Part shown: positions 37,901 to 63,184 of the stretch, piece after piece
How positions within the stretch are numbered: the stretch's first letter is position 1
Layout: each line of letters opens with the position of its first letter
NCBI GenBank assembly: GCA_024679065.1
Contig: JAGIQG010000002.1
Coordinates: 71,424,001 to 71,488,000 of the forward strand
From: Sphyrna mokarran
Taxonomy: Eukaryota
Length of the DNA: 64,000 bases
Reading direction: 5' to 3'
Notes under the pieces: model-generated
Databases searched by the model: none
Seen by the model: the letters and a program-made list of their open reading frames with translations, nothing else
What the model was told of the DNA's origin: nothing
Program-made: the position numbers and the translations under genes

Positions 37901-37981
37901 GTTAATGTATCAATCTTATAATCATTTGGGACTACGTCACATCTTGTATATCTAACTTGATTTAAATATTTATGTTTATAG

Positions 37982-40165: not shown

Positions 40166-40357
40166 AGGTTACTATTACTTATCTACATATTATTGGTTTT
40201 TAACATGGACAAACTGTACATGCAAGAATGTCTTTGCAACATTCTTTAATCAGTGTATTCTTGATGCTTTTAATAATAAATATTTCAATGACTACATATA
40301 AGTTAATAATCAGTTTGGTCCTCTCTTAAAATAATGATGTATCTGTTTTTTTCTCAG

Positions 40358-40408
40358 AGCTTTGCTGCTCAGTACATCAAACGAGACGAGCTGACACCAG
40401 GAATCCTG
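40358..40408 (+). CDS. COL1A2: COL1A2 exon 6 (51 nt, N-proteinase site and N-telopeptide SFAAQYIKRDELTPGIL)
   Basis: The FAAQY motif matches the procollagen N-proteinase site; cag|...|gtatgc. Confidence 0.92.
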
Positions 40409-42571
40409 GTATGCATTTACGACCTCTTTCTCGATCATTTCACAACACAGTATGGCAAATTTCAAGATCCTACTCCCCCAGTGTGGAAGCCACATTTGAA
40501 GAGATTGTACAGCCTTGATAAAGTTACAAGATTGTAGCTATGATTATTCAGCCTACATTTCTGAGAAGTGTGGCTGATCACTGGGACAGTAGGATTGAAG
40601 GAATAGTCTTTACGTCATTCTGTATCTGAATGTTCTTGTTTCATTTAAGTGTCCTGAAAATGAATCATGTATTATTTGAACATATTACTTAAAAAAACTG
40701 AAACCATACATTGGCTGAAATTTTCCAGCCATTCACACTAGCAGGATTCTCTGGTCCTGCTGCAGGGAACAGAGATTCGGCCTCTAACTTTAAAGTGTGC
40801 AAGCAATAGAATTTTTTTAATATAAAGAAGCATTAGAAACACCAAAATATACATGAAAAACACCAGAATATAGTTGAAAGGATGAACTTAAGCTGTTACA
40901 TCATCTTGTCATTACCAAGATCATCTTTACTCCTTGTATCAAGGAATTGCCAGTTGTTCAATATTATTAAGTTATTTTATAATTAATCTTTAATATGATG
41001 GCTGAATGTAAGGAAACATTTCAATATGAACTACTCCCCAGACTATTTATTTTGAGGTGTGACAAAAAGACCTACAGACAATGCCATTACTTTTAGTACG
41101 GTATCTCCCCAGCATGCTTATTTGCCATTTTGTTCTAGACTCTTATCAAATGCCTCTCCAAGCAGTTAGTCTAATGATGTGAGTTACAAACGTTTCCAGG
41201 AACAGCTCCATAGTATAACACAAAATTCAGAATTTGAAACAGGTTGGACACTAATTCAGTGGTCCATGGTCAAAGGAAATGTTGGGTTTTCACATCTCTG
41301 TATCCAAGAAGAAATCCAAATAGCAGGTTTCCACTGACTTAAAGTTTAATAATAAATTTTGTATAAATTCCTTATTTCTGACATTAAATTGATCATAATA
41401 GTGTTTCGCTAAATCTCCCCAAGCACATAAGACATAACAAACCCTGTAATGCCTCTCCAAACTAAGGTAGTAGGCAATGGCCATTAAGGGATATATTAGG
41501 TATTTTCACTCACTTTGTTTGTCTCCACTTAGGTTAGTTTAGTAGAATTAATTTAAATCAAAACTTGACAATGGTCAAGAAACCACTGGCAAAATAAAGA
41601 TAAAGTAGATGAGCATGAATAAAAATATCTCACACAGCTTATTCTCGCCTTGTTACCAGAAGATTTGTTTCTATTCTCATTTTGCGACAGTAAACAAATT
41701 ATAATTAGAACACAGTTAAAAATATTTTCCTTTGTCACTCTATTTTGGGCAGTTCCCTTTTAACATACACATTTCTTTTGATCTCCACTTCCCATTGTGA
41801 GCTTTGGGTAGTTGGCAGTCACCTCTATCAGAATGTTTAAGATCCATTCCAGCATTTCAGCAAAAATCTAAGCTCAGACTTGGGGCAGTACTAACGGGGT
41901 GTTACATTGTTGAAGATGGGCACTTCAGGTGACCCAGAAATGAACAAACTGATTACTTATCTCACTTTTTGGTAAGAATAATTGGCTGTGACTTTTATCC
42001 AAATTAGAACTCACTGCATTTAAGTATAACTTATTGTGAGGCTCCTTGAGATGTTTGCGAGGCACAATAAAGTCCTATGTAAATCGAAATGTTCATCTTT
42101 ACTTTTAACTGGTAGAAAACTAAATATGTAAATGTAGGTTAATTTGTTTGAAACATAACAAATAAAAATACAGCTAACAAATAGGAAAATAGGAAATCTG
42201 AAATAAAAACAGAAAACACAGGACTCAGCTGGCCTGTCAGCAACAGTGGAGAAAGAAACAGAGTGATCTTGTGACTTTTCGTCAGAGCCCTTATCTTTTA
42301 AATACTTTCAGTTCAGTTAAATGATCACCCAATGTTTGATTCACTATGGAATAAATTTCTGCTCCGTGCCATCTGCTTATGAAGACTAAAGTCTAAAGAC
42401 AGTCAAAAAATAATACAATAATATAAATTGTTTGTAAGTCATCATCATCACCCCAATTTTATCTGTCTTGCCTCCAACTATATTGTGTTTCTGTTTCAAA
42501 AGCTTGCCTTGCTGTTTTGACACTGATTAGCGTTGTATGTACTAATTCCAATATGTTCTTTATTTCTTCAG

Positions 42572-42616
42572 GGACCAATGGGACCAAAAGGCCCACAAGG
42601 AGCCCCTGGTGCCCCT
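42572..42616 (+). CDS. COL1A2: COL1A2 exon 7 (45 nt)
   Basis: GPMGPKGPQGAPGAP; ag/gtaagt. Confidence 0.95.
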
Positions 42617-42777
42617 GTAAGTTTTACAACTTTTTGATATTTTTCTCTTGCTCAATTATTATTGAAACTATGCAACACATTGTACTACCTCCATTTGAAA
42701 TTACTATGTTTAATGATTATTTTAGATATCTCAGACTTCCAAAAAATCTTGAATCAAATGCATTTGTTCACTTCCAG

Positions 42778-42831
42778 GGTTCACCCGGCCCCCCAGGAAT
42801 TCCAGGCATTACAGGTGAAGCTGGTGCAAGT
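42778..42831 (+). CDS. COL1A2: COL1A2 exon 8 (54 nt)
   Basis: GSPGPPGIPGITGEAGAS; ag/gtaagt. Confidence 0.95.
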
Positions 42832-42936
42832 GTAAGTACATGTTTGAATTAGCAGTTTCATTTTGTGACAACTTAAGTAATTTGTGATTTTTTTTCATAA
42901 TTATTTTGATTATCTTTTCATCTCTTTACTCACTAG

Positions 42937-42990
42937 GGTCCACATGGTCCTCGTGGTCCTCAAGGTGTACCTGGAAAACCTGGTGAAGAT
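42937..42990 (+). CDS. COL1A2: COL1A2 exon 9 (54 nt)
   Basis: GPHGPRGPQGVPGKPGED; ag/gtaagt. Confidence 0.95.
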
Positions 42991-44621
42991 GTAAGTATAG
43001 ATTATGAAGAAGTGAAATAGGAACCATGGCAGCATTTTTAAATGTTCTCAGCTCCCTGAATGGCAACTATATGTATCAATCAGATAACATCACTCATTGG
43101 GATGCCTCACCCTATCTGAAATTGGTTATCAGTCACGTTTTGTTGCCAAGCAATGGCAATGTCCAGAGAAAATAAAACAGAGTTAAGTTCTGAATAATTG
43201 AAGGAAGTCTCTAGAAACTAGAGCTGGATATTTGGATAATTCTGAACTGCAAATTGAGTACGCCACACACTTTCTCATCCCGTTAGAAATTTGTTGAATT
43301 TCATGTACAAAATTGAATTTATAGAAACTATTTCTGAAACCCAGAGCTACGATGTTAGTCCTATCATAGTGATTTTTCCTTATACTAAACGGCATACTTC
43401 AAAGAATTACTATGTTGTCAAATAGCTCTGCAGTTTTGACTTGGACATAGTTCCATTAATAGAAATCTGCAACTGCTTGTGTTTCGTTTTCTGCTTTGTG
43501 CCAAAGATAAGAGCTTACACTGGAGTGTAAATAAGTATCAAGAGGTGGGATTTTGCAGCTGCACTTACCCCAAAACCAGAAAATCCTACTCGAGATCAAT
43601 GGACCTTTGCATGGTCTGTGCCCCCTCATCCTCACCTCCCTGCGCGCTATGATTCCCATGGCAGGTGGGATGGGAAAATTCCCCTCCAAAGGTATTTCAC
43701 AATAAGATAAATTGACAGTATTACTAAGACATATATTATTTTTCCTTTCTGTGACTGACAAACATCTGCCTTCTTAGAATCTCATCAAATAATAAATTAA
43801 TTAATGTTACAGGGGAAATTGGTCTCTGCCAGAAGTACAGATTAGCAGCTAATTTTTAATCACTCCTGACCTCCTTTTCATAAGTTTCCAGAATGACAGT
43901 TCGGACTCTTTGGTGACTCATTTTGTGGTCTCACGATTACTTTTATTTGATTTGAAATGAAAAATCTTGGCAATATTTTCACAAGTTGATGGAAACTAAA
44001 AAGTGGCAGTTCACTATAAGCCAGTTTTGTCACCGCATCCCCTGCCCCCTAATCCCCTCATTACCCTGATCGAAAGAATAGCTAATCATCTGTTGCCAGT
44101 GCTTATTGGTTTCTGTAACCAGCATAATGCTGATGAGCACCTGAGGAATTCAAATCAACCTCCCCATTATAGAGAAACAAGCTTAGTTTCTCTCTGCAAG
44201 CTGGGGGTCTAGATAAAATCAAAAGTAAGCCAGTGGCAAATTTGAGACTTATCTGTCCAGGGTACAGTTTTAGGAATTTCCCTTCAGTTTGCCTCCCAAA
44301 AAAAATGAATTTAGCTATCATCTAATCTAGAGATCAAAAAGGCAATTGGATGCACCATGTTGGATGTTAGCATTTTGGTATATGATCCTGAAAATCTATT
44401 CATCCAACTGCAAACAATTCAAAAATGTTTAACGTATGAATATCCTATCAATAGTTGTAAATGTTCCAGAAGTAAATACATTAACTGTATATTTTACCAT
44501 ATAGAAGCACATTTCACATACCTGAATTACAATATAATTACCTTATTGTACAAATATATGTGTATTTCTTCTTTAATGGATGCAGTATTAATATTAAAAA
44601 TATTTGACTTTTTTCTAACAG

Positions 44622-44675
44622 GGTTCAAATGGCAAACCTGGCAAATCTGGCGATCGTGGTATTGCTGGACCTCAG
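44622..44675 (+). CDS. COL1A2: COL1A2 exon 10 (54 nt)
   Basis: GSNGKPGKSGDRGIAGPQ; ag/gtaagt. Confidence 0.95.
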
Positions 44676-44854
44676 GTAAGTGATACTGCCACATAAGTTT
44701 TATCTGTGCAATCTATTATCACCAGAAGGTGCTGATCTTCCAGTTCAATGCAAATATTTATTTCTTACTTTTTTTTTAACTAAACAGCCATAGCAACAGT
44801 GTCAGATCTTTCCACTTTGATGATTGGGTTGTTTTCTGTGCTTCCTTTACATAG

Positions 44855-44908
44855 GGTGCTCGTGGTTTCCCAGGAACCCCTGGTCTCCCCGGCAGGAAAG
44901 GACACCGA
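44855..44908 (+). CDS. COL1A2: COL1A2 exon 11 (54 nt, helical cross-link Lys87 in KGHR)
   Basis: GARGFPGTPGLPGRKGHR; the Lys falls at helix residue 87 by triplet count. Confidence 0.95.
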
Positions 44909-45003
44909 GTGAGTCAGCAATTTCATTTTTGATACCTTTGATAGCTTTTTTTCTACCCTGTATGTTTAACTGACATGTTTCATTATCTTCCACTTTACAA
45001 CAG

Positions 45004-45057
45004 GGTTTCAATGGTTTGGATGGAATTAAGGGAGAGCCTGGTGTCGCTGGTGAGAAG
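45004..45057 (+). CDS. COL1A2: COL1A2 exon 12 (54 nt)
   Basis: GFNGLDGIKGEPGVAGEK; ag/gt. Confidence 0.95.
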
Positions 45058-48000
45058 GTACAGCAATGATCGAGTTACAGTCTGAGTTTTAAAATATTAG
45101 TTGGGAAGTATATCAAACAAATGTTTTTTTTTCTAAATTTCAACATATAACAATATACCAGGAAATTAAACAGAAAACTGTTAACGCTTTCTGTGCATGT
45201 TGAGGTGTCATTTTTGACATTTCAAATATTAGTGAAAACTAGACATGAGTATAAAACTGAATGTGCAATATCACACTCATTTCACTGGGAAATAGAGTGT
45301 CCAGAAGCAGAAAATACAATTAGTGTCTTGAAGGAGAGTACGGATTACTCAAATTGTAAGATCCCTTGTAAAGGGCAGGTTTAGAATTTTGTCACATGGA
45401 CCCCATTGTGAAAATCTTCCTTCACTGATAATTCAGCTAAAACTAAGAAGGTCATTTCTTGTCATTTTTAATCTTATGTCTGAATTGTTCACTACTGCCC
45501 ACTTCCAGATCCTAATACTGATGTAGATCTCTTACAATGTAGATCTCTTCTGCTATATGGGTTTTCCTGGATATCTAAGCTCTTAGTGTAGATCCTGCAT
45601 GTAGTTCTTTCCTCTATATGTCTAAGGTACATCTTTTTAGTTACATTGTTAGCATTACTGCTATACTGTAACAACTAGCCTTTCATATGCCACAGCATCC
45701 TATTAAGCGACATCAGTGTTGCACTGAATATGTGATATATCAAAATATGCCATAAAATAAAGAGTTAAGGCAGTCATTTGCAGCTAACACCATTGCATAA
45801 AGGATTCATAAGGCACTTGGTTGAACAGATTTCCTCTTCAATTTCCACGCCAGTCCCAAAATTAAAGGCTTCATGATTCTCAATTATAAAGACACCCATA
45901 GAACAAGACTGATTAATATCAAGGAGCAATCATTCAAATAGAACAGAGATAAATAGCTATGGTCTTACCTGATACCCCAGGAATTGTAACCTGGCTGGAG
46001 GTATCAGACACAACGCTTATTGTTAAACAGAATTAAATTATGTGGCTGTGACTCATACAAAAGAGTACAATACCAAATATGGCCAGAAACTGCTTTGTTT
46101 AGTTATTCCCCATAGTTGTGGTTTGAAATGGCAAATGTTCTTTCTGCAGCACATATGTGAGAAGTTACTGTACTGGAAGGGTAATGATTCATTCATTGTC
46201 AAAAGGAAATATATTTTAGCTTCGTAGCCATGTATATCCCAGAGCAGAAATGAGAAACAGATTGATAACTTTAGGGCCATTAATTGTTCACCTAACAGAA
46301 CATGATAAATGATACAAATCAAATGTTTGCTGTTTCATCATATCTTTAAGACATTGGAAGCTGCTTTGGGATTTTGAAACTGCAGTAAACAGGGGACATA
46401 CTTTAAATATATATTTAAGTTCACCATGCAACGACCAAAATAGTTCCCCAACAGACATGCCAGATGTAATTCTCTGGCTTCCCAACACCATGGATGCAAG
46501 TTGCCCATGAGCAGTCCACAGAGGTTAGGCAATTAGAGGGAAAAGTGATAGCACTCCCTCCCTGCCTCCCCACTCATCCTCCCCCTTCCAATTTCTTACT
46601 CTTGGTGGATGCACATCCCACTCAGAGCCCAGAATTGACCCAGAAGTGTCTTCTTGACAGCAGACTGGGAGCCATTGAAACCTCCTTTCAATTGCCTCAA
46701 TCAATGGAGTTTCTGCTACACAACATCATCAGCCTGACAGTTGTGCCAATGTTTAATTTTTTAATGTCTTACAATGTTACATTTTAAGGCATCTTCAAGA
46801 TTTTCTCCCTGTCTCAGCATCGCCCACCTCTCCCAGTGTGGCTATCAGCCAGATAGTATTGCAGGCCTTCTAATTGGATCTTGTACTTGCTTGATTTGCC
46901 CACCATCCTTAATTGGATGGGACTTCCAGAAGCAGCTTCTTAACTGGTTGTCTCCAGGAAGATTGCGTTCAATGTCCTCCCACCATCACTTTCGGGTTTC
47001 CCATCTTAAATTACGGCCAACTTTGGGATCATGAAATTTCAGCCTTCTATAGTTAATGATTTCTTTTAGATAACTTGATGCTATATAGCAACTTGCTACA
47101 AGAATCAGAAATGCTTATTTTCTATTGAATCATCTCAGAAGTTTCAAAATTTACATATCATGATTCCATTGAAGAATCCCCAGCGATTGGAGATTTAACA
47201 ATGATCATGGCAGATAGTAAGAATCTGGTATTATTTCTGCTTTGAATCATATTTCTGATAAATCGAAAAAGAAAATGTTTATTAAAACTGAATCCAGGTA
47301 CACTGCATAAACATTTCTTTGCTTTTGTTTGATAAGGGCAAATCTTTCTTTTTCCTTCCCTACCCTGCACTTATTTTTATCAAGCCTTTTGGTTCAGCCC
47401 TAGAGCAAAATATGAAAAGATTATTACAGTATAGAGTCATAACAGGGCAAAGAAATTCACATCAATATCCTTCAGTTTTATGAAAATGATACTTTACACA
47501 TTATGCAGAGTAAAAGTAGTAAATTGAATGGTAGAATTCTCTGTTCTCTTATATCTTGTTGTTATCTTGCAGCAGATGTAAGTGGAAAAATGTTATTACC
47601 ATTTAACATCACCATGTTAGCATTCTCTTCCTCAACCAATGAGGAAGTGATGGACAGTCTGACTCATCCTGAGTTAAAGTTGTTTGCTTCAAGTAAAATA
47701 ATAATTTAACTTCTTAGTATTGCATTTACAATTAACCCTGCCATTTGCATTACTTTATTCAAATTAGTAGATATTTTTGAATCTTCTCTGTCAAAAAAAT
47801 GACTGACCTTTATCAGGATTAGTCTGTAAATGGATTATCTCTGTTACTAAATATGAGCATTGAGGAATCTCTAAGCTACAAACAGAGCCTATGTCATTCA
47901 TCACTGCAGTAGATTTTCCACTGTTATCAGAACAATGAGCATGTGCATTTCTCAATACTGTGAAGAAAGTACAGAGCAAAGCAAAATTTCTTTTGATTAT

Positions 48001-48151
48001 GCTTGTTTCAAAGTTAGGTAGTAATGTATTTTGCAAAAATTGGGATCTTTGTCCCAAGGTAAGATTAGGAAGTTTCATACGCTTTCTTGTGGTAATAGTA
48101 TTGTAGTCAGCAAGAAGTAAAATAAATGTTCCTTTCTTTATTTTTTCCCAG

Positions 48152-48196
48152 GGTGAAGTTGGTAACCCAGGAGCAAATGGTAATCCAGGACTCGCG
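48152..48196 (+). CDS. COL1A2: COL1A2 exon 13 (45 nt)
   Basis: GEVGNPGANGNPGLA; ag/gtatgt. Confidence 0.95.
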
Positions 48197-48332
48197 GTAT
48201 GTGTTCCATCATTCAAAATATAAAAATAATGCTAATCACATACCACAAAATCCTTACCATAATTTTGTACCTATGTTATGTAAAGCACTTAAAACTAAAC
48301 GGAGTAAAAATAAACACTTTTTTTGCCAACAG

Positions 48333-48386
48333 GGCCTTCGTGGTAGTGCAGGCGAGAGAGGTCGTCCTGGAGCTGCTGGCCCCGCT
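48333..48386 (+). CDS. COL1A2: COL1A2 exon 14 (54 nt)
   Basis: GLRGSAGERGRPGAAGPA; ag/gtgagt. Confidence 0.95.
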
Positions 48387-48417
48387 GTGAGTTTCAAGCT
48401 TTTAATATTTTCTCTGT

Positions 48418-48660
48418 TCATAAGTTCATAAGACATAGGAGTAGAATTAAGCCATTCAGTCCATCAAGTCCACTCTGCCATTCGATCATGACTGATCTGC
48501 TCCTCATCCTCATTTTCCTGCCTTCTCCCTTTAACATCACTATTTCAACCCATTACCAATTAAAAATTTGTCTAACTCCTCCTTAAATTTACCAGCATCC
48601 ACTTTGCTTTGGGATAGTGAATTCCACAGATTCACAACCTTTGAGGGAAGTGGTTCTACC
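48418..48660 (-). mobile_element. CR1 LINE 3' tail
   Basis: cataagttcataagacataggagtagaattaagccattcag...gaattccacagattcacaacc. Confidence 0.65.
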
Positions 48661-49052
48661 TATTGGTATCCCTAGGTAGAATCCCTAGGTAGTTCATGGA
48701 ACTGCATGAAACGAGAGGCAGATCAGACTATTCAGCTTGGTGATTCATAGCCCTTATAATTATTTACTTATTAATTGACAAATCAGCCTTCAGATTGAAT
48801 GAGGATATGTTTTAACATCACCATTAATGTTTTTGAATATTCTGAATTGTATGCCATTAAAATAGTTTTCTAAGATGCGTTTTTTCTATTTGTAATACTA
48901 TATTGTAATCCTTTCTAACATTTTCATGAAAGCTTTTATTTCAGTGTTTATGCTTATTTTCAATGGGATGCCTATTGACCATTTGTCTTACAAGATTGAG
49001 CATTCATAAGTTTTAGTAAATTTAATAATACAATTTTTGTGTTTCCTTTAAG

Positions 49053-49097
49053 GGTTCCCGAGGCAGTGATGGTATGACTGGACCTGCCGGCCCTCCT
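49053..49097 (+). CDS. COL1A2: COL1A2 exon 15 (45 nt)
   Basis: GSRGSDGMTGPAGPP; ag/gtaagt. Confidence 0.95.
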
Positions 49098-49849
49098 GTA
49101 AGTATGCAAATAAAATTTAATTAATCATTAAATTGATAAATGCACAATTATTAACAAATTACAAGAGTGATTCTGCAATACAATATCCTCAGTGGAGAGT
49201 CACAGTCTCTAGCAAAGCGAAGAGTGAATACTGGGCAACATACTGTATAGCTAGCTGATGACTTCATTGTATAACCCAAATGTATGTGTCCAGCATCCAT
49301 ACAATGAAAGCCTAAAATGTAAGAAAAACATTTCTGTTGCCTGGGCCAGAACAGCCTTAGAGCCCTCAGTAATGCCAGTGACAAAATTTGTGATAGTCTG
49401 CTACATACTGCACAACCCTACCATTATAAGGCCAAAGATCTTACTAGCAGCTACATAGTAGCCATTTGAGGTACAAAATGATGAGAAGGAGAATCAGGAG
49501 AATGTGAAAGGAAAGGAAGAAAAGGAAGGAACAATTCAGGCATTTGCTATCTGTCATTGACTTAACTAAGAGCAATATTAGTAACTGCAATCCAGTTTCC
49601 TCCATTCACAAACCTTTACCTTCTATCTGTCACTGACCATCACAGTGTCCACCGGCCACAATGATAGAATAGAAGTCATCACAAAAGAAACCAGATTTAA
49701 AAGTGAAATCATATAGCATACAAAAGTTAATTAACCTCCCTTGCATATTCCCTCAGTGCCTGTCCTCTGTGTGCCTCTGCCTCTCCTACAGCAGAATTTT
49801 ACACCAGCTGGGATTTTACAATACCGTCAAAGTCAATGTAGTTTTAAAC

Positions 49850-52060
49850 AGATTGCACATTTTACAGCCCCACCCCCACCACAATGTAGTTACAAAATTC
49901 CACTCATAGTGCTCCTACTCAATACAACCCCAGTGGCAACAGCAAGTGGAAGGCAGCAGACTTACACGCTGGCAGATTGCAGGTGGAGTGGCAGGGCCCC
50001 CTTGAGCAGCTCCAGGTCTTGAGTGCCTCACTGCAGCATCTCAGCTGGATGGCATCAGTCTGAGCTGCCTGGCTGACAGGCGACAATAAGGACACTAGTG
50101 GAGTGTTAGAAATGGGAAGATAAGTGCTGTCTTCCTGAGAGGAGACCAGTTTGGTGCCTCCTGGAGCCATTGACACTCTCGAAGCCAATGACTCAGAAAT
50201 CCTAATAAAATAAGAGAACAGACTACAAAGTCAGAAGGTAGTGGAGGCAGGAAACCTTACAACCTTTAAAAAATATACGGATGAGCTCTTGAAATATTAT
50301 AACATTCAAGGATATAGGATAAGTACAGTAAAATGGGATTAGAGTGCCTTTAGTGGTAGTTGTTAGCAGTGCAGACCCAATGGGCCGAAGGGCCTTTTCT
50401 GCACTGTATAACTCTATGGGCAGGATCTCCTGGCTGCATTCGATCCAAGAACAGAAAACCCTGCCTGAGATCAATGGATCTTTGCATGGTCAGCCCCACC
50501 GCCCACTACAGTTCCCGTGGCAGGCAGCATATGGACTCTGTGCAGGACTGCTGTGAGGTTCTGAAATTCCCTTTGAACATTGTAGTCTACAGCCTTGATA
50601 ACAGTAAGCTGACCTTGCATGATAGCAAGCTGAACTTTCACTGCAGCAGCCAGACATTGGGTGGCTGCTGCTTCTGCTGCACTGGAAGTTGTGACTTTAA
50701 CCATCAGTTGCTTTGTTATACTTGAGTCCACAAGTATTCTCAAGGAGAATACATTGACACCATTTCCAAGTCGAAAATAATGGGCTCCAAGCTCTGTGTG
50801 AAGTCTTGTGTCGAATTAGTGTTGGATTCCTTCATGCTTCTGGACATTGTTCACAGGATTTCAGATGGACTTACAATGCAGTAAGTGTTTAGTTGTGTAT
50901 GCCCATTCAACATGCATCTGCAGACTGCCCCATTGAAGTACTCATCTGAGTCCTAGGCAACAGAACTTGTCTAAAACTGAGCCTTCAGTAAGCTGGCAGC
51001 TGTGCTCCCCTTGTTCTGCCTTTTTGGGTCACTCAGACCCAGTATCATTACCACATGCAGATCTCACCTCAGTATGACTCTTTGCTTGGTGTTTTTCCAG
51101 TGCCAGGCCAAGTTTCATTTTTTAGATATCTGAAAGGAGAAATACACAATTTAGAATTATACTAGCGGGAAAGGGGAAAGTAAGTATTGTGTGTCTACAC
51201 CATTTACAAATTCCAAATCAGAAAAAAGTGTAGAAAGATGAGGAGGAGGAAGAGAAACTGGATTGGGTATGAGGCTATCTTTATCTTTAATAGTTTCATC
51301 CCCTTTAGTAGCTCAATCCTCAGCAATCACTATTCCCATAATAGTTAGTATCACCTCCTCCATGAGGCTTAAGACAAACAGGCTCACCTGTCTCTGTCTG
51401 GTTTGCTACTACAGTTGTCCACAAACTTATCTTGCAAAGAAGAGGGAAGTGTATCAGTGAGTGTGGTGCAGTCTGCTGTCTCTTTGGATATAATGGCTGC
51501 CAGTGTGTGAAAGGTATGGGATATGGGTATGAAGATTGCAAAGGTGCTAATAGTATGAAATAGTATGAAAGTATGAAAATAGTATGAAAGGCACATCGGA
51601 ATGTTGGGCATTGATATCAATTGTTGGTAGGTGAGAATTAGTCATAGTAAATTAAGCAGGGTGAGAGGTTGAGTGGAGTTGCTGGAATATGGCATTTGAA
51701 GATATATAAATCTTGCTCACTGAGGAGATGTGTTAAAATCTCACAGCACTGTATTCAGATCCTTAGGGTTTGACCCCTGGCACTGATCTCTATAACTATC
51801 AGCTCTCACAGTCTCCTGTGAGTTGGTCTTGTGGACTATATGGCCCCCTGCAAACAGAAGACATATCTCCTCCTCTGCCTCTTAACCAAGGTCTCCAATG
51901 CAGCCTTCTTATACTCATAGAGCCCAACCTCTCTATTTGATTCTCTAATAATCCCTGGTCAGATCACTTCTTGCATGACTAACAGCACCTGTTTCAGCCA
52001 TAAGGCAGCCTCACTTAAAGAAGCTCAAGGTTAGGTTTAAACACTGCAGACAGATTAGCT
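49850..52060 (-). mobile_element. Decayed Harbinger Myb/SANT-like ORF remnants with nested CR1 tail and MITE, in intron 15
   Basis: Minus strand at about 51720-51930 reads ALETLVKRQ... and IVIEISARGQTLRI*IQCC, resembling the Myb/SANT-like protein of Harbinger elements. A coiled-coil-like stretch lies at about 50560-50700 and a CR1 3' end at about 50235-50415. Confidence 0.45.
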
Positions 52061-53418
52061 TTAAGTGATGCTAGCCATTCATGATATTGGCCCCTGCTAC
52101 TGTATCAAGGTAATCAGCAATAGGGTGGGAATCGCTGGCCATTCATGCGGGCAGAATTCTCTGGTCTCGCTGCAGTGAATGGAGGTATGGCTGAGCACCA
52201 AATTCTCCATCCTTGCTGGCAGTGGCAGCGGGGCATGATCAGGCAGAGAATTCGGCCAGTTTGTGTTGCCTGGGTGAAGAAAAATTGAAATGAGCAGGGA
52301 GCACAAAGATGGCATGTTGCCTGCATTGCAATCAATAGATATAAATTGTCATGAAGCCTGCATCCATTTTCAGATGCAATTAAATTTCATCATCAGTCCA
52401 CCAACATATATTACTGATATTACTTTGTTTTGTATATTACTGCTAGTCTGGTACTGCACATTAATGGTATGAAAAAATGATCTATAAATGCTAAATTAGG
52501 TTAGTTTGTGTTATGTGACTTCCATGGAAGTTATTGTCCATGGTGGTAGGTCTGGAAGAGTGACATAATAGAATGTGGGTAGACAGGTACGATACTGGCA
52601 GAGTAACTGTCCAGGCATTGATGCCTAATCTACAATAAGCAGGTCCACTCTGATGGCATTGAATTGATTTGAATGGAGGTTTTAACAACTTCTCCAATTA
52701 CTTTAGTCTTCATTAGCATTAGCAAAAACGTTGCTTCTGCAGACTTTGATAAAACACAGAAACACAAGGGTTGAATCTTTCATCCGTTGGGCACATGCAC
52801 TTGGTAAACAATTATAATCATTCTCAGAGTGTGATTTCAGGCCTGCTGGCCAGTTTATGGCCAGTCATTGTAAAATGTGCACTCTGACAGGCTGAGCACT
52901 GCAAGGGAGGACAGGAAAAGAGTGGGTGCTGAGAACAGTGACAGTGCAAAAGGGCATTTCCAACAAGCATCCTGAAGTTTGACAGTTGCCTCAGGACCCA
53001 GTGACATTTGCACCAAAACCTCTCTCCATATTACAGAAACAAGCAACTGGTAACATAACACATAACACCTCAACCCTCAGACATTTTTTTTATCTCAGAT
53101 ATTTAATCTCATCCTGAATTGGGAATGGTGAAAAAACATGAATACCATGTGAGTCACATAACATTAGGGTCAATGGCATGCTTATTGGACTTAGTTGCCC
53201 TTTCACCTGTCAGTGACCACGTCCAATTCTTGTGTGTAACCATCGATTGAAATATTGCACCAGTACGTTAGGACATTTGTCTAACTTTTTACCGTGCAAG
53301 TTGAGAATGGATACCTACCCACTCAAGCTCTGTCAAAATTCTGGCCACAGTAAATTCTAGTATAAGAAGAACACAAAAAAGGCAAACTGTTAATATTTGC
53401 AATTTTATTTCTTCATAG

Positions 53419-53472
53419 GGACCCATTGGTGCAAATGGTCCCCCAGGCTTCCCAGGCAGCCCTGGATTCAAG
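53419..53472 (+). CDS. COL1A2: COL1A2 exon 16 (54 nt)
   Basis: GPIGANGPPGFPGSPGFK (Lys174); ag/gtaatt. Confidence 0.95.
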
Positions 53473-54717
53473 GTAATTTTTTTAATGACAAAAAGTGAAT
53501 GCAATACAATATTACCGCATTGAATAGGTGAATACCATAATATCATTTTTTAAAAAATCATTTTGTGGTTTGGAATATCCTTGTTTTTCTATCATCCTTT
53601 ATCTCAAACCATTCAGAACGCTCTCAATAAGTTGTTTGCCAATTAACTGCAGCCTGCCAATGTTTATTAAAAGCATAATTTAAAAATGTTTAAAGTCTAA
53701 CAATGATTTCCATTCACAAACCCTAGTTGTAACACTGGTGTTTCAGCCACAATTGTTCAGTTGTTCGAACATAATTCTACACAGACCAAACAGTTAACTT
53801 TTTGTTACATAGATGTCAAACTTATTGTATTCAATATTGTATCAAAGTAAACATGTATAACCTTGATAAATTACAGAATTACTGCAACTTTCCAAACTGT
53901 AGGTAAAGCATCACAATTAAGAATAACCACTGAGTTAATTTTATCTTTATGATAGCCATGTAGGAACTATTTTGAGTTAGGTTCCCACAAACGTAAGGGT
54001 ATGATAGTTGATAGCTGTAACGAGGCACCTATTTATGAATTGGATTTCTTCACTGTAACCTATTAATTGTAATGCTTCAAATATCACAGCAGTTCAGAAA
54101 CCTAATGCTACTAAAGGCACAAAACTCAAGTTTACAATATTTCCCAGAAAACAAAGGCAGGCAGAAATAACTAAAATTATGCAGAGCTTTTAACAACTAA
54201 GTTAATTTCATAACTGTCTTAAGACATTCTGCCTATAAGAAGAATGTTGCATCAGTAACTTATTTCAGACAGTAAAATAATATACCATCAAAATAAGCTT
54301 ATCGATTATTTAATGAAGTCTCCATAAAATGGTGATTTTCCAAGACTGTGAAAGTCATGCTTTGGTCTTGTTCTGTTATCACCTTAGTCAAGAAAGTGAA
54401 TATATTATTTATTTGTGGGTATGAAAAAAATTAAAAGTAATCTGTTTCCTTCTATTCTCAATAGCAACCTATAATTAGACCCAACAAATTGATCATTATA
54501 TTAATATAGTATTAATTTATATCACCAAGTAAAGTCAAAAGCACATCTACTTTATAATTAGATTAGGTTCTGGAACAGAATAACAATCATTCAGCTGTAC
54601 AAAAAAATCATCAATTTGGTGATTAAAAACCTTAAAAGGGTCTTCAAATACTGAATGTAAATAAAAACAGTAAAGTTACAAGTTATTTATTCTAGCACCA
54701 AAAGATGTTGAATTAAG

Positions 54718-55035
54718 TGCGGCACAGTGGCGCAGTGATTGACACTGCTGCCTCACAGCGTCAAGGACCTGGGTTCAATTCTGGCCTTGGTCACTCTCTG
54801 TGTGGAATCTGTGCATTCTCCCCATGTCTGTATGGGTTTCTTCTGGGTGCTCCAAAGTCCAAAGATGTGCAGGTTAGGTGCATTGGCAATGCTAAATTGT
54901 TCCTTAGTGTCCTAAGATGTGTAAGTTAGGGTGGATTAGAAGGGTAAATATGTGCAGGATGGGATCCTCCATTAGAAAGCCGGTACAGACTAGATGGGCT
55001 GAAAGACCAGCTTCTGCACAACAGGGAATCGATGA
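54718..55035 (+). mobile_element. HE1/V-SINE in intron 16
   Basis: ggcacagtggcgcagtg..ctgcctcacagcgtcaaggacctgggttcaattc..aaagatgtgcaggttagg. Confidence 0.85.
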
Positions 55036-55361
55036 TTTTTGTGATAAATGTCCATTTTTCATTATCCATTAAAATTATTCAATGGTATTTAATTATTGTT
55101 AGATAGGATCTGTTGCAGCAACAATTCAATTTGTTTTAACATCCTCATGAAAACAATAGACCTAAAAAGAATTTGAACTTAAATAGTGCATCACCAAACC
55201 AAATTAGACATTTACCAGTCTGTAATTTTGAGTGTTTGTTCTAGATGTGTTTAATTGTATATTAATGAGCTTTTAACACCTTAATAAGTGCAGCATAAGT
55301 GTGGTAACAACCTATATTGAATATATAAGTTGATCTTTTTTTTAACTTCCTTATAACATAG

Positions 55362-55460
55362 GGTGAAGTTGGACCAGCCGGTGCTCGTGGTCCATCTGGT
55401 GCTCAGGGCGCTAGAGGTGAGCCAGGTGCTGTAGGTCCAGTTGGACCAGTGGGTCTTCCC
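55362..55460 (+). CDS. COL1A2: COL1A2 exon 17 (99 nt)
   Basis: GEVGPAGARGPSGAQGARGEPGAVGPVGPVGLP; ag/gtaagt. Confidence 0.95.
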
Positions 55461-55558
55461 GTAAGTAGTTTTAGTAACAATATCATTACTACCTCTTGAG
55501 ATATGATTTTATCTAACTGGATAAATTGTACCTATAATATTCATTATTCTAATCCTAG

Positions 55559-55603
55559 GGTAATGCTGGTGCAAATGGTCTTACCGGAGCAAAGGGTGCC
55601 ATG
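55559..55603 (+). CDS. COL1A2: COL1A2 exon 18 (45 nt)
   Basis: GNAGANGLTGAKGAM; ag/gtgagt. Confidence 0.95.
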
Positions 55604-55714
55604 GTGAGTACACATGACTCACCCATTTAGTACTTTCTTGAACAATCTCATTGATAAATCTACTTTCATTTTAAAATAACAAATGTTTGTCTTGTGTCTT
55701 TTTTTGAAACAAAG

Positions 55715-55813
55715 GGTGCTCCAGGTATTGGTGGTGCCCCTGGTTTCCCAGGACCACGTGGTCTCGCTGGCGCACCTGGAGCAAGCGGTCCTGCAGGTCT
55801 TCGCGGTCTCAGT
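55715..55813 (+). CDS. COL1A2: COL1A2 exon 19 (99 nt)
   Basis: GAPGIGGAPGFPGPRGLAGAPGASGPAGLRGLS; aag/gtgagt. Confidence 0.95.
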
Positions 55814-55946
55814 GTGAGTAACAAGTATAATCCTATAGTGAGGCAATTACTAGAAATAACTCATTCTTTGATTACAATAATGGCATTTTATTAAAGTTAT
55901 GAGTAAAATTCTAAGAAGATTTTCCTTTCCTAAACTCACCATACAG

Positions 55947-56000
55947 GGTGATCCAGGCATTCAAGGTATCAAGGGTGAGACTGGTGCCAAAGGCGAGCGT
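55947..56000 (+). CDS. COL1A2: COL1A2 exon 20 (54 nt)
   Basis: GDPGIQGIKGETGAKGER; ag/gtaagt. Confidence 0.95.
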
Positions 56001-56109
56001 GTAAGTACTTTGTAATAAATATGCATTTTATATTTTAATTGTGTAATTTATTTCCTATTTTTGATTACCCATTGCCCATGTCCTCACCTTTTTTCTGCTC
56101 CAAAACCAG

Positions 56110-56217
56110 GGTGATGTTGGCCCAGCAGGTGCCCCTGGTTCAGCTGGTGAAGAAGGAAAGAAAGGTCAACGTGGAGAACCTGGTTCTCAGGGACTTCCTG
56201 GAGTTGCAGGTGAAAGG
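56110..56217 (+). CDS. COL1A2: COL1A2 exon 21 (108 nt)
   Basis: [36 protein letters not shown]; ag/gtaaga. Confidence 0.95.
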
Positions 56218-56749
56218 GTAAGATGAACTTTATATCCTAAAAATTACATCGACACATGATTTAAGTAAATGTAGAGATCTTCACCTTTAAAACAATAAGT
56301 CATGGTAATTCTGAAACGATGAAATAAACTAATGAAATGCTTATATTTATTGCTTACAGTTATAAAGTCCTAGTACCCTGGCTATGATCTAATGAATGTC
56401 AGATTATTAAAAGATTTTGCATACACATAAATTAATTTGTGTCTGAATACAGTTGATAATTAGAACATATTTGGATATTTTAAACAAATTTCAATAAGCT
56501 GATCACAGGAATTTTAGTGGAACGATCCTCTACACACAAACTAGACATAATAGTTTTGACATCATAATTTAGTCTATTTACTTCATAATAATTCTATATA
56601 TATTAACAGTACAGTAAATGGAAAAATATTAATTTTAAGTTACCACTCTTTAACAGTAAGTTTAACTCATTCACAGTACATTCCCAATTCATTAAATTCT
56701 CTTTAATTAAGAGATAACTTTTCAACTTTTTCTCTCATTTCATTTGCAG

Positions 56750-56803
56750 GGTTCCCCTGGTCCCCGAGGTATCCCAGGTCGTGATGGACCAGTTGGCGGC
56801 ATG
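56750..56803 (+). CDS. COL1A2: COL1A2 exon 22 (54 nt)
   Basis: GSPGPRGIPGRDGPVGGM; ag/gt. Confidence 0.95.
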
Positions 56804-56967
56804 GTACATTTTGCTTTGTTATGCTTCATGCATTGAGTAAAAAATGAGAAACCTGTTTTTTATTTTTAAGGAATAGTGAGATTTTCTTTATTAGATGATT
56901 AGAATGGTTCATTTGATTGATGCTATCATTCAAAATGATGCTACCTTATTTTGTAATTCATTTCCAG

Positions 56968-57066
56968 GGTGCACCTGGCAGACGTGGTGAAGCTGGTCCT
57001 GCTGGTGCCAAAGGACCTCCTGGTGACGTTGGACGCCCTGGTGAAAGTGGTATGCATGGTGCTCGG
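56968..57066 (+). CDS. COL1A2: COL1A2 exon 23 (99 nt)
   Basis: GAPGRRGEAGPAGAKGPPGDVGRPGESGMHGAR; ag/gtgagt. Confidence 0.95.
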
Positions 57067-57748
57067 GTGAGTGAAATTGAAATAGACATAGATGTACAGC
57101 AAAGACATAGATGTACAGCATGGAATTAAACAGCATGGAATTAAACATTTCTTGAATGATATTTATCATTTCTTCATATACTTTTAGATTTATTTCTCAC
57201 TTAGATATACCCCCATAGTTTTTTAAATGCTAATTAATTGTAAATGACATTTTAGTAGAAACTCCCAGAATTAAGTTGTAGACAATAGAATCTTTTATAA
57301 AAAGTACCATGTAACTTACACATTTTAACCTACCTCCTGATCTTGTAAAAATAAATTTGTCCTCAAAAGAATGTATTTTCACTGATTTTGTTTTTCTTAT
57401 TTCTTACCTTGGATATGGGCCGGATTTTACTGTCAGGGTGGGCGAGGCTCACAGAACGGAATTCTCCATTGGCCTCAGGCTGGATTCCACGAGCCTCGTC
57501 CGAGTGAGGTCATAAAATTTGCATATGATGTTCCATTGGTTTTTCTAAGATTTGAGCGCTGTTAGAAGCAACAAACTTTATTTGGACAAATGTGATTGTT
57601 ATCTCTCCCAATTAAAGTTGATCTTTGAGAGTTTTTAAAAGAGTTTGCACAATGAAGTAAGTGTCATTGAAAATATAAAATAAAGTATCTTTGCTGTATA
57701 CACAATGGAATGGGATCTAAAATTGTTTTGCCTCCTCAACATTTATAG

Positions 57749-57802
57749 GGTCATACTGGACAACCTGGTAGACCTGGCGCTGTGGGAAATCAAGGTGTTG
57801 CA
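57749..57802 (+). CDS. COL1A2: COL1A2 exon 24A (54 nt, candidate mutually exclusive exon)
   Basis: atttatag|GHTGQPGRPGAVGNQGVA|gtaagt; six intact Gly-X-Y triplets. Confidence 0.8.
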
Positions 57803-57842
57803 GTAAGTTTTCTCACCTTACAGTAATGTGTTACTTTTTCAG

Positions 57843-57896
57843 GGTCTCGTAGGTAGTGCTGGCATTATAGGTGCTCCAGGCAAATCAGGTCCTGCT
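57843..57896 (+). CDS. COL1A2: COL1A2 exon 24B (54 nt, candidate mutually exclusive exon)
   Basis: actttttcag|GLVGSAGIIGAPGKSGPA|gtaagt; six intact triplets, closer to the mammalian exon 24 (GLPGSPGNIGPAGKEGPV, recalled). Confidence 0.85.
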
Positions 57897-59108
57897 GTAA
57901 GTTGTTTTTGAGGTTTTCTGCTCCCCATTCTTGACAGCTTATTCAATCTAAAAGTAGGTTTGAATCAAGCATGGCAAATTGCATGGGGGTATTAAATGAC
58001 ATATATTGCAGAACATCTAAAAATGAAAAGGCTTCAATTGTTAGGTTTTGCTAACGTCTAAAGTAACAACTCTTTTAATTAAGAAGCAATTGAAATAATT
58101 TATTAATATAGGTACAGTAACTGCAAACACTGCGCCATTTAGTGATACTAACAATTACTTATTTACGATGCAATAATATTGCATACTCATTATTAATTAA
58201 CAAAAGCTATGTCCAGTAACCTGAAATAATGTTTTCTTTCCATATTGTAATTGAAATTCCTCCCCCACACACAAAACCTGTATTTCACGATTAATTCAAA
58301 TATATAATTATGGTAATCGATTACCCAATTCATATACTTATTTTAAAAATACATGTTTAGGCATAATACATATATGATGTTGTGGAATTCAAAATAGTCT
58401 CTTAAGTACAACATTGCAATTGCATATGTATGAGAAGTCACACAAGGAATTCAGTGCATTAAAACAATATTTGGCTACATAAAAGACAAAAAGTCAGAAT
58501 AACCTGCTTGAGAAAGAAAAACTGTCCATATGGAAACATTTTGAACGTCAGATTAGAACCCTATTATGCACTGAGCACAAAGAATTCTGAATATATTAAG
58601 AACATCGGCCATCTCAGTACAATTATAGCAGTCGATTTTGATTTGGTTGCTGTTTTATGTGTTACTGTCAAGTGATCATTAGAATATTATTAAGATTATA
58701 ATATCCTGATTTAAATACCAGCTCCTCAGACCAACACATGGACCAGATTAAAGGTATATATCCTACTATAATTCATGTATCACTGAATATATTATAGGAG
58801 TAATAGTAATTCTCAGTTGTGTTCCCCAGACTACAATTCTCTTCAAAATAGAATGTCATCCTTAGAATACTAAAGCGTACTAATGTGTTAGATTTGTGCA
58901 TTGTATCTATGCCAACTACTATGAAATTACAAATGAATAACTCATGCGGAATATTTACTCAAATGTTTTTGCAATAAGTAATAACATGCATGGAAGTAAA
59001 ATAATAAACCAAAACACAATTAATTGACAATTGACAATTAATATACGAAAATAATCTCCAGTAACTTGTGAAGAGCATTGTTTCATTCTCTAAGATTGTA
59101 CATTTTAG

Positions 59109-59207
59109 GGCCCAGCTGGTGAAGAAGGTCGCACTGGTCCCCCTGGTCCTCTTGGCCCAAGAGGTCAAGCTGGTATGATGGGCTTCCCTGGTCCAAAGGG
59201 TGCTGCT
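59109..59207 (+). CDS. COL1A2: COL1A2 exon 25 (99 nt)
   Basis: [33 protein letters not shown]; ag/gtaagt. Confidence 0.95.
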
Positions 59208-60233
59208 GTAAGTGACAGTTACATTATTTGTCAGTATTAAATTCTAAATATTCTGTCTTAACATTATCTGAGTAGCCTTTACAGTTGATCTATAAATACC
59301 TTTGTTGCAAACTGAAATTATTTAGATGATTTCTTAAAAACTTTCCTTAAAAGTTTATAATATTTAATGAAATTTAAAAGTATTAATTTATATTGTAGCC
59401 AAATCCTTGGTGTAATCTAAAACCTTTAGCTTAGATGCTTAAAAATAGCTTTAGTTGGATTAGCAATAAGTGATTGGAGGTTGATTCTATGACTAAAGCA
59501 ATGTTTTCTAGCTCCACTGTAGCAAGATCTGCCACAGGGGAGTGGCAGGCCTGCTAAAAGTCCATTGACTTTCAACATGATGGGGAGATCCCTGTGGCAG
59601 GCAAAGCCGGAACTTCCTGGCCATTGTTACTTATTGGCGAGCTAAATGTTTAATGCGCAATTGTTTGGGTTATGGCTGAGTGATTTATCTCTGTTGGTTC
59701 TAGCATTTTAACATAACTAAAACCAGCTCCTGAAACTGAATGGCAAAATTGACAGCCTAGGCAATATAGATCCAGAGAACTAACTGTCATTGTCTCAGAG
59801 CCAGAAGTTTGAAACGTGGAAAGCAGCTTTAACATCGATTGCACAAGCTCTGCCATATATTGGCTGGAATTTTCTACCTGCTGGAATTAGTGGGACCTTC
59901 TGATTCCACTGACAGTGAACCCCAACGATGCCAAATCCCTACTGTGGGAAATCCTGTTGACAACGAAGGAAACCCCACCGCCGGATAATATCAGGTCACC
60001 TCTGCCATTGGGAAATACACCGTAGCAGGTGCAAAAATTCCTATCCATTGTCTGGTATTAAGCCCCCACATTTTGGTTCAGAAATAGATCCTATTTGTCA
60101 AGTTAAATAAAATATAAGTTCATTTGAATTAATTTAGATGCATTCAAACAAGATTTTTCAAAATTCCAAAGATTAAAAAACTTGTAATGGGATCATAACT
60201 TATTCTTATTAATATATATGTTTTGTTTCCCAG

Positions 60234-60287
60234 GGTGTACCTGGCAAACCTGGTGAGAGAGGCGCTATTGGTTCTGCTGGTCCAAGG
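60234..60287 (+). CDS. COL1A2: COL1A2 exon 26 (54 nt)
   Basis: GVPGKPGERGAIGSAGPR; ag/gtatgt. Confidence 0.95.
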
Positions 60288-60720
60288 GTATGTTTAATGC
60301 CATTAGTTCTTCTGTATGAATTTGAACAGTATTATTTACATAATTTTCCATATAAAGTAATGGATAATACACTCAAGCTTTAATGGAGCCCCAAATCACC
60401 ACCCACTGGGAGCAAGACAGTAGGGAAATTTACCCAGAGGCAGCATCCTAATTGTCTGTCTCTCTGCTCACCAACTAGTACCATGAATGTCTCCCAGTGC
60501 ACCCAGCACAATCAAAGGGCAAGCATCTGGTGAGCCTGGGCAATCCTACTGGGAAAGGTGAACACTGCTGAGTAACATTGGAGACCATATGGGTGTCTCA
60601 ACTTGGAGGCCAAAATTTTAATGAAAATTTCAGAAGAGCCAAGCCTGTAAGTCTGTTAGAATAGGGTAGAAACCACTCTGGCTAGAATATGTAGCCTTTC
60701 TTGCTGGCAGGCTCTCAGTG

Positions 60721-60796
60721 ATAACCTCGAAAGCTTGTGAGTTCACTATCAAATAAATCAGTTGGACTTAAACCTGGTATTGTCAGACTTCTTACT
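60721..60796 (+). mobile_element. Short Penelope terminal fragment with a probable 12-bp TSD
   Basis: cgaaagcttgtga..caaataaatcagttggacttaaacctggtattgtcagacttcttact, flanked by aggctctcagtg (60709-60720) and aggctgtcagtg (60797-60808). Confidence 0.65.
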
Positions 60797-62591
60797 AGGC
60801 TGTCAGTGGGACATGGGGCCGTTGGATCTGATAGCTCCCAGCCTGCTCCAGGGCAGGTCACCTACATGAAGTTGGTGCCATCCTCAAGTGGCAGAGGGTA
60901 GGGGTGGGGGGGAGGGCTCTGCTATCAGTAGTACAGCAAAATAAGGTTGCCCTATTTGTAAATTGGATACCACGTTCCATTCAGAAGATGGCCAGTGTGA
61001 CCTTGGAAACTTCTCCAACAGAAACACGCATGTACCCACTCCCTGCTATTTTCACAGATTCCCTGTCTCCAAGCCCATCATCACAAGGTGAAAAAAATCT
61101 GCCCAATGTATTTACTTAGGCACTTAAAGTAAGAGTGTGCTTTCATAGATCAATTTAAGTACATTACCCCTAACCCGCACTGGCATGGAAATTTTGCCAT
61201 GAAATACAGCTATTTAAATTTTAATGTGTCTTCTGAAACTCTTTCCTCCACTATCTTAGCAGAAACATCAATTGATTTATTTCAGATTGGTTTATGGCTC
61301 TGCTAACATGATGAACAAGGAATTTCAGACCATTTTATTAGCACTCATATGCAATATTCCATCATATAATTCAAACTGTAGTCCTTTTAGTCTAAAATGG
61401 TTATCTTTGCCTTAGCCTTAGACTATTCAGATAGTCAAAAGATTTTCAAAAACAGGTAACTAGACAATACAACACTGTAAGGACTGAAGTCGACCTTCAA
61501 GAGAAAGGTATTTAAGAAAAAGTATGATAATATCTATTGCAATCAAATGGCAGTTTGATGTTCTTTCAGGCAATCTGGTAAAAACATGCAATGTGCTTAC
61601 GTTTTAGGAGTCCACCCTTCTTCAATTATTCATAGGAATCATGTGCATTATATAGGACCTTAAGGAATAACTGAAAGCAGTTTAGGAGGAAGGCTACCAA
61701 ATTGAACGGGGAATTTCAAATTTGACCATAAATGGATTTTGGAACTTGCAGTGAATCGAGGCCACATGCCTAAAGCCACAATCCTAAGGCCCCTATCATT
61801 CTTATGTCCTGGCGTTATTTGAACTTGCAACAAGTTGTAGGAATAAAATAGGTACAGGTTATAGTTTCTGGACCTCAGAAAATTACCAGCGTCCATAAAG
61901 AGTCATCCTTCTGATTTCACATAACCTGAGAATAAAATATAAATTTCTTGCCCTGTGAACTTTGGTTAGGCCTCTGGATGTCTGGTAGAAATCTAATTAG
62001 TGTGCACACTTCGTCCTCATTTCTATTAGCATTACAGTCAAAATCCTAAAACCCAAGGTTTTGAGTGAGAGAGACTGGACCCCTATTGCAAGAATTGCCT
62101 GAAGGTTGAACCAGGTGGATAGATTATTGTCCAAAATACTCTCCAGGTTTTCCTCTGCTTGTCACTTGTTTCCCGGGCAAGGAAGGCATAGCCACCAATT
62201 GAAAATTCCTCCCCAGTATGAGAGAGAAAGTAATTGTTGTTAATATTTTTGATCGATTGCTCTTCTTAATTAAAGTTCCTTTGAGAATTACACAAAAAAT
62301 AGATCATTTATTACATTTAGAAAAATGCAAAGATCTGTAGATGATTCTCTATTTCTGGAAATGATATAACAACAATTCTTGATTCTTCAACAAATTCAAT
62401 ATTTGAACAGCAGGGCACTGTGCAGGATATAGAATCATAACAGTCTCTTAAAATGGCAGCCACAAAATGTGAGTTAGCTATTTGTTCTGAATTTAAATTT
62501 GCCATGAGGAATAGAGACATGCAATAAGTTATGTTTAGCAATATATGTAATACCACAGACAAAAATTTTTTCTGATCTCTTTGCTTCTCAG

Positions 62592-62645
62592 GGTGCACCA
62601 GGCAAAGATGGTGAGATTGGAGTACAAGGTCCTCCTGGTATTGCT
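62592..62645 (+). CDS. COL1A2: COL1A2 exon 27 (54 nt)
   Basis: GAPGKDGEIGVQGPPGIA; ag/gtaagt. Confidence 0.95.
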
Positions 62646-63130
62646 GTAAGTAAATAATTACAAGCATAACAAATAACTATGCTTTAAAATAGTGCTGTAT
62701 GAATATTAGTTATGAATGTTTAATTCCTTATATTTAGTTCATGCTTCTTTATTCTTAAAATAAGTGGGTCAATGCCTAGATTTAAATAACAGAAAGGAAC
62801 TTGATATTGTACAACATATTAACCTGATTATATACTAATATTAACAGACATTAATTTGAAAACATTAAGTTTTTATATAGGCTGTAATTTGAAATTTTCA
62901 AAATGTTTTCCTCATGCAGTGTTATGCTGGAAGATGTTACATTGCTGCTAAATCAATAAATATATATAATTGACTTACTAAGATTTCATATTAGAAGGTT
63001 TTAAATGCCAATATTACTGCTGAATAAATACATTTATTACTTCTGATTATCATGAATATTATGTTCATAAATTTGACAAGTTAGTTATACTTTTCACTCA
63101 GCAATCAATTTTAATGTGTTTTTTCTTTAG

Positions 63131-63184
63131 GGTCCTGTTGGAGCAAGAGGTGAAACAGGTCCAGCTGGCGGTTCTGGCTTCCAG
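63131..63184 (+). CDS. COL1A2: COL1A2 exon 28 (54 nt); the gene continues beyond the window
   Basis: GPVGARGETGPAGGSGFQ; ag/gtatgt. Confidence 0.95.

Follow-up and report, generated by a model that had tools for sequence, protein, structure and literature searches.

Two tandem 54-nt exons 24 in shark col1a2: probable mutually exclusive splicing within the type I collagen helix

How can a shark gene for the alpha2 chain of type I collagen carry two exons 24 when its triple helix has room for one? The helix of vertebrate type I collagen is treated as fixed, with the gain or loss of one or two triplets described as pathogenic in the available part of one source (PMC11607015). In the window, by which is meant the whole stretch of 64,000 nucleotides analysed, two 54-nt exons lie between the 99-nt exons 23 and 25, as the initial annotation had it. 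Each encodes six Gly-X-Y triplets and is flanked by an AG acceptor and a GTAAGT donor, and in the 40 nt between them read-through from the first exon meets a TAA. The features are as follows.

34790..63184, + strand: col1a2, candidate exon 2 to exon 28, with exons 29-52 beyond the window
56968..57066, + strand: exon 23, 99 nt, last letter G; its partner is 24A in the major transcript and probably 24B in a minor one
57749..57802, + strand: exon 24A, 54 nt, helix residues 361-378, used in the sole spliced contig seen
57803..57842, + strand: spacer, 40 nt, out of frame, with a TAA in the 24A frame
57843..57896, + strand: exon 24B, 54 nt, acceptor use suggested by contig starts, the more ancestral-looking copy
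57897..59108, + strand: intron between 24B and 25, 1212 nt
59109..59207, + strand: exon 25, 99 nt

The reading favoured here, at a probability of roughly 0.7, is that splicing of 24A and 24B is mutually exclusive, 24A being the major form and 24B a minor one that is nearer to the ancestral exon. An old tandem duplication of col1a2 exon 24 would have given two interchangeable 54-nt exons that are spliced singly.

The two exons share two of 12 X/Y residues and differ at the third position of four of the six Gly codons, as earlier counted, with a nucleotide identity of 27/54. The residues of 24A are polar (His, Arg, Asn, Gln) with two Y-position prolines, those of 24B hydrophobic (Leu, Val, Ile, Ile) with one Lys and one Y-position proline, and a PDB search with the 24B frame gave no matches. 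The pair is tandem and homologous, equal in length and phase and intact at its splice sites, in keeping with a mutually exclusive pair. Among 173 introns read in the five clade-A collagen genes of the genome none is as short as the spacer, the next measuring 85 nt. Two branch-like adenines lie in the spacer 13 and 18 nt from the 24A donor, one at 57815 in the CTCAC motif described at the outset and another at 57820 in a second motif, and an AG occurs within it at 57822-57823. With a spacer of 40 nt and the 24B branch point this near to the 24A donor there would be no room for the spliceosome, such that joining of 24A to 24B would be blocked. Upstream of the pair, intron 23 contains a short high-copy repeat (57432-57518, depth about 5000 in a DNA-type run), and at 57084-57145, just 3′ of exon 23, there are two adjacent small tandem duplications of 18 nt and 15 nt.

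The gene is, on the evidence of its sequence, shark col1a2, in agreement with the first assignment. Its exon series is canonical through exon 52 (read past the window end), with exons of 45, 54, 99, 108 and 162 nt and a helix of 1014 residues as in COL1A2. The gene has very small exons 2 (17 nt) and 3 (18 nt), no recognisable VWC exon and a Ser where the second C-propeptide cysteine would be, a combination which we take to be diagnostic of COL1A2. Among the matches listed for exon 51, the full-length named ones to CO1A2 were 78-79% identical vs 67-74% for COL2A1. Compared by eye, a catshark Col1a2 probe shows about seven differences per 155 nt from this gene, and exon 36 of the catshark partial protein is identical at 17/18 residues; the catshark sequence, in the part of the source available, begins at exon 32, short of exon 24 (PMC4584932). 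A misassigned gene or a shifted exon count is ruled out by the exon series, the exon lengths, the spacing in PDB 3hqv (see below) and the paralogues. A search of the 2.77-Gb assembly with exon 51 gave nine matches, five clade-A collagen loci among them, and no second col1a1-like gene.

With a single exon 24, exons 7-48 come to 2988 nt, the same as in col1a1 of this genome, which is 996 residues with the terminal triplets in exons 6 and 49. In PDB 3hqv the alpha1 chain matches exon 23 at 344-376 and exon 25 at 395-427, and the alpha2 chain matches them at 339-371 and 392-421, the latter with query residues 3-32, leaving 18 residues between the two exons in both chains. The equal 2988 nt and the 18-residue gap both uphold the proposal that only one exon 24 fits the register. 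Inclusion of both exons, whose reading frames agree once the spacer is removed, would make the alpha2 helix 18 residues longer than alpha1, but the spacer is less than half the next-shortest of the 173 introns and human duplications of one or two triplets, like deletions of that size, lead to severe or lethal osteogenesis imperfecta, going by the text available (PMC11607015).

A single exon 24 is present in each of col1a1, col2a1 and col3a1 of this genome (three of four paralogues, named from sequence, exon 24 of col5a2 lying outside the stretches read), ruling out for these three an exon 24 duplication common to the paralogues. The col5a2-like and col3a1-like genes lie tail-to-tail at 32.53-32.81 Mb of another contig with a canonical exon series in the parts read, and the col3a1-like helix ends ahead of Cys-Cys. 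In col1a1 of the shark genome exons 33 and 34 are separate and of 54 nt each; the two are fused in mammalian COL1A1.

The 24A/24B stretch is single-copy in the assembly (one match). A 3′ UTR bait was held by 20 of the 22 runs listed, under ten organism labels (one a metagenome) and in all cases as contigs, and four of the 22 were compared over 56742-60341, these being X19 of DNA type and X1, X5 and X11 of RNA type. In X19 (organism I) one unbroken contig of about 96% identity extends over 57637-59544; about 82% of X19 was read, the splice-site state in organism I lying beyond the part listed. The single locus and the contiguous pair in this DNA-type contig of a related organism, which spans both exons, rule out an assembly artefact, and the exon pair is real and conserved. 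Fifteen metagenome loci at 37-68% identity were taken as unrelated collagen-like genes.

The identity of 27/54 between the copies is within background, 24A scoring 20-35 and 24B 21-33 against 43 unrelated in-register helix windows, such that the evidence for duplication is the resemblance of each copy to paralogous exon 24 and not that of one copy to the other. With col1a1 exon 24 the X/Y residues shared are 4/12 for 24A and 5/12 for 24B, with 1.8% and 0.4% of 228 control windows doing as well, while with col2a1 exon 24 both copies share only 2/12. A col1a2-like locus, which we infer to be of bony-fish type, has a single Gly-periodic 18-mer (shifted frame, within 258 nt between exons 23 and 25, mean of 3.7 options per position) that is compatible with 24B at 6/12 and with 24A at 3/12 X/Y positions. 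Judged by these likenesses to col1a1 exon 24 and to the col1a2-like locus, both copies are derivatives of exon 24 with 24B the more conservative, such that 24B looks more ancestral than 24A.

The free sites between the copies are saturated (15/42 identical, JC d 1.46), and despite this the 12 Gly G's and four splice letters are intact in each copy; a neutral copy would have remained so with a probability of about 4e-5 at half the divergence or 4e-3 at a quarter. Both copies look constrained and both are present in related organisms, in keeping with the selection on both that had been suggested. Exon 24B is indel-free in organisms A and B with at most two substitutions in B: none of the 10 gap letters of the X1 contig falls in 24B, and over 57842-57988 the X5 contig is gap-free and differs by at most two substitutions. 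Extra conservation around 24B was not significant among the rows listed (P 0.12 and 0.054). The organisms compared are only 4-6% apart. No shark col1a2 protein spanning exon 24 was recognised among the word-index matches listed (35, 83 and 120 of 149) or among 133 HMMER matches, with 356 proteins screened.

These data also bear on the view that 24B is the ancestral exon lately displaced by 24A and now a vestige with a leaky acceptor and no protein. The more ancestral look of 24B (6/12 vs 3/12 X/Y positions with the col1a2-like locus), the use of 24A in the sole spliced contig and a divergence of 4-6%, too close to expose decay, would all suit a vestige, but saturated divergence with intact structural sites argues that both copies have long been kept and 24B is free of indels in both organisms, making this an improbable account.

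The splicing of one exon at a time into two isoforms of equal length, proposed from the sequence at the outset together with a count of junctions, can be followed in contigs rather than reads. In X1 (organism A) contig 1, with a depth of 707.5, joins exons 22-23-24A-25-26 at GT..AG (57065>57748 and 57802>59109) and skips 24B. The 23-24A and 24A-25 junctions are therefore found in X1, with 24A alone in the spliced contig. A 24A-24B joint was absent from all four runs, one of which was informative and all of which are contigs, and 23-24B and 24B-25 joints were likewise missing from the listings of all four, contigs being prone to drop rare forms. As such the 24A half of the proposal stands as a transcript, whereas the 24B half has no listed joint. 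There was no spliced exon contig in X5 or X11, an absence that, records being filtered, has no bearing on expression, and X11 holds repeat pieces only; a spliced contig was thus obtained in one of three RNA-type runs.

In each of two studies one contig begins at 57842, where the 24B acceptor ends: contig 3 of X1, at a depth of 27.3 and with one unmatched leading letter, and contig 26 of X5, at a depth of 4.8 and with none. They cover 24B together with about 1.1 kb of the downstream intron, to 58916 in X1 and in three pieces to 58953 in X5. Contig 3 of X1 has about 4% of the depth of the spliced contig 1, at 27.3 against 707.5, although such depths are a poor measure. Seven simplified k=31 graph models were tested, in an argument that turns on one or two letters: unspliced RNA alone gave a start at 57774, a 24A-24B junction one at 57843 and a 23-24B junction alone 25 unmatched letters, while the only two models to give 57842 without an extra letter were those that combined a 23-24B junction with unspliced RNA. 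Any upstream exon ending in G would fit the contig start as well as exon 23. The contig starts taken with the graph models point to a joint between 24B and an upstream exon, for instance 23, and use of the 24B acceptor in two species is accepted with moderate confidence. The same starts fit 23-24B and not 24A-24B and the spliced contig skips 24B, such that double inclusion is very unlikely.

The 24B-bearing RNA retains its downstream intron, which the initial annotation did not foresee and which allows for the main rival, in which 24B begins an alternative last exon, exon 23 being spliced to 24B, the 24B donor ignored and the RNA cleaved near the AATAAA at 59003. The read-through product would end four codons past 24B, have no C-propeptide and be unable to enter the trimer, and its production would throttle alpha2(I) output instead of adding to its diversity. 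In keeping with this, the only AATAAA of the 24B-25 intron (59003-59008) lies 50-90 nt past the RNA contig ends of the two studies, at which no loose end is listed and beyond which the DNA-type run continues, although contigs cannot reveal where an RNA ends. Elsewhere in X1, listed intron pieces have depths of at most 7.3 compared with 27.3 over the 24B intron, and X5 lists none outside the repeat. Such a last exon would leave unexplained why, with divergence at saturation, 24B still has all six glycines, a length of exactly 54 nt and its GTAAGT donor. An AATAAA occurs about once per kb in the introns of this gene (19 in 19,173 nt), and this one is in an A-rich tract (58990-59019, 19/30 A) that could capture oligo-dT. 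Assemblers drop short weak paths beside deep ones, and in doing so could shorten the intron end and mask a 24B-25 junction. A terminal exon at 24B is accordingly regarded as unlikely.

Under mutually exclusive splicing the common path would be 23-24A-25, seen in one run, and in the minor path exon 23 would join 24B, as the contig starts in two studies suggest, with removal of the 24B-25 intron then completing a second mRNA. 24A would be the default and 24B a minor or tissue-restricted choice, and by either path the 1014-residue helix would stay in register with alpha1(I) with residues 361-378 swapped. Two full-length alpha2(I) isoforms of the same length are, as such, the probable outcome.

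Removal of the 24B-25 intron looks slow or regulated, and sequences to either side of the pair may speculatively be connected with this.

57179..57231, + strand: intron-23 stretch in which the run 57179-57190 and the 5′ part of 57207-57231 are a perfect complement to 57945-57992
57919..57992, + strand: predicted hairpin 3′ of 24B, with two GCATG at 57969 and 57981

Two runs of at least 10 nt were found in 0.28% of 11,990 control intron pairs, a figure for windows picked after seeing the match, and long-range pairing between intron 23 and 57945-57992 is possible. The hairpin ranks 11-12 of 119 introns with a fixed window, a modest support, its z of -2.76 applying to a trimmed window only (-1.35 in the fixed window); it is a lead only, and the hairpin sequence could instead pair with intron 23. 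No RNA structure stood out over both exons (z 0.08) or the spacer (z -0.69). The motif GCATG, which we take to be an RBFOX-type element, occurs twice 70-90 nt past 24B and twice past exon 23, two copies within the first 150 nt being present in 4/119 introns, two of which flank the exon pair. Those past exon 23 arise from a small tandem repeat, the second duplication (15 nt) doubling the element. The GCATG, hairpin and pairing leads were all found after the fact. At position 57989, the would-be partner of 57210 in intron 23, each of the three organisms with coverage has a difference. Control of 24B-25 removal via GCATG and the hairpin 3′ of 24B is plausible, if speculative.

A rather doubtful extension is a three-way switch at residues 361-378 between a 24A chain, a tissue-restricted 24B chain and a truncated transcript. 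RBFOX-type factors or competing RNA pairing 3′ of 24B would turn on 24B, while 24B without activator would run to an intronic poly(A) end, lowering alpha2 and shifting the balance of heterotrimer to homotrimer. If this were true, splicing of a single gene would determine the make-up of the fibril in chain sequence as well as in chain composition, a task for which teleosts have an extra alpha3 gene.

The alpha-tropomyosin precedent invoked at the outset was reportedly described by Smith and Nadal-Ginard in 1989, exclusion of exons 2/3 being said to be steric with the branch point too near the upstream donor. The intron between alpha-tropomyosin exons 2 and 3 is the longer one and has a distant branch point, whereas in col1a2 the whole spacer is 40 nt. 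The precedent holds for a branch point near the upstream donor, while a closer match for the spacer is the alpha2(IV) gene let-2 of C. elegans, which has mutually exclusive exons 9/10 with a developmental switch (PMC2119826) and a 30-nt spacer of which excision was never seen (PMC4165533), both as given in the available portions of these papers. As far as those portions describe it, let-2 resembles col1a2 in having tandem homologous exons with lengths divisible by three and a spacer too short to splice, and it places one exon in each mRNA with the downstream exon promoted from its own downstream intron (ASD-2). It differs in being a nematode network collagen with exons of 108 and 111 nt that differ mainly in a Gly-X-Y interruption, whereas the helix encoded by shark col1a2, a vertebrate fibrillar collagen, has no interruption and must hold a strict register, and both of its exons 24 are of 54 nt. 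A developmental switch has been established for let-2 and would be hypothetical for the col1a2 pair.

In vertebrate fibrillar collagens the variable-region exons of COL11A1 are alternatively spliced. Exon 2 variants of COL2A1 give IIA, IIB, IIC and IID, and the available part of the same bone splicing review treats COL1A1 and COL1A2 splicing only as pathological (PMC12627340). The COL2A1 and COL11A1 events alter the N-propeptide region, whereas the col1a2 swap would alter the mature triple helix at the same length. Teleosts have an alpha3(I) chain, reported in hake in the text available (PMC7465276), in which case chain variety comes from an extra gene, whereas the col1a2 pair would provide it within one gene. 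A reef-fish col1a2 splicing event proved, in the part of the paper available, to be a skipped 36-nt exon and not this pair (PMC8933327). No alternative helix exons were found for vertebrate type I collagen in literature searched mostly outside subscription journals, and a text search for isoform peptides returned only an unrelated hydrogenase paper. The exon pair may already stand in annotation databases.

Within the literature searched, two alternative exons 24 would, if true, appear to be the first case in vertebrate type I collagen of a splice polymorphism at the level of the helix. They would offer a natural experiment in which an 18-residue alpha2 change is set against local stability, fibril packing and ligand binding, and would bear on shark collagen as a biomaterial and on peptide-based species identification. 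The swapped segment is about 20 residues ahead of a Met-Gly-Phe motif kept in exon 25, for which PDB 4dmu and 2v53 contain matching collagen III peptides. The partners in those two structures are presumably VWF and SPARC. Mammalian alpha2 differs in this motif region. Exon 25 is also unusually alpha1-like, with 15/22 X/Y residues common to col1a1 vs 90/182 over eleven exons.

Other features of the gene concern its chain composition and surroundings. Over 42572-63184 and the downstream exons the col1a2 helix is proline-poor relative to alpha1 of the same genome (169 vs 213 Pro, 85 vs 111 in the Y position) and histidine-rich (12 vs 5). Exon 6 (40358-40408) is of 51 nt and encodes an unusual charged N-telopeptide with one Lys; strong cross-linked alpha2-alpha2 dimers are described in blue shark skin in the available text of one study (PMC7465276). 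Downstream of col1a2 lies a 352-codon stop-free frame that looks retroelement-derived.
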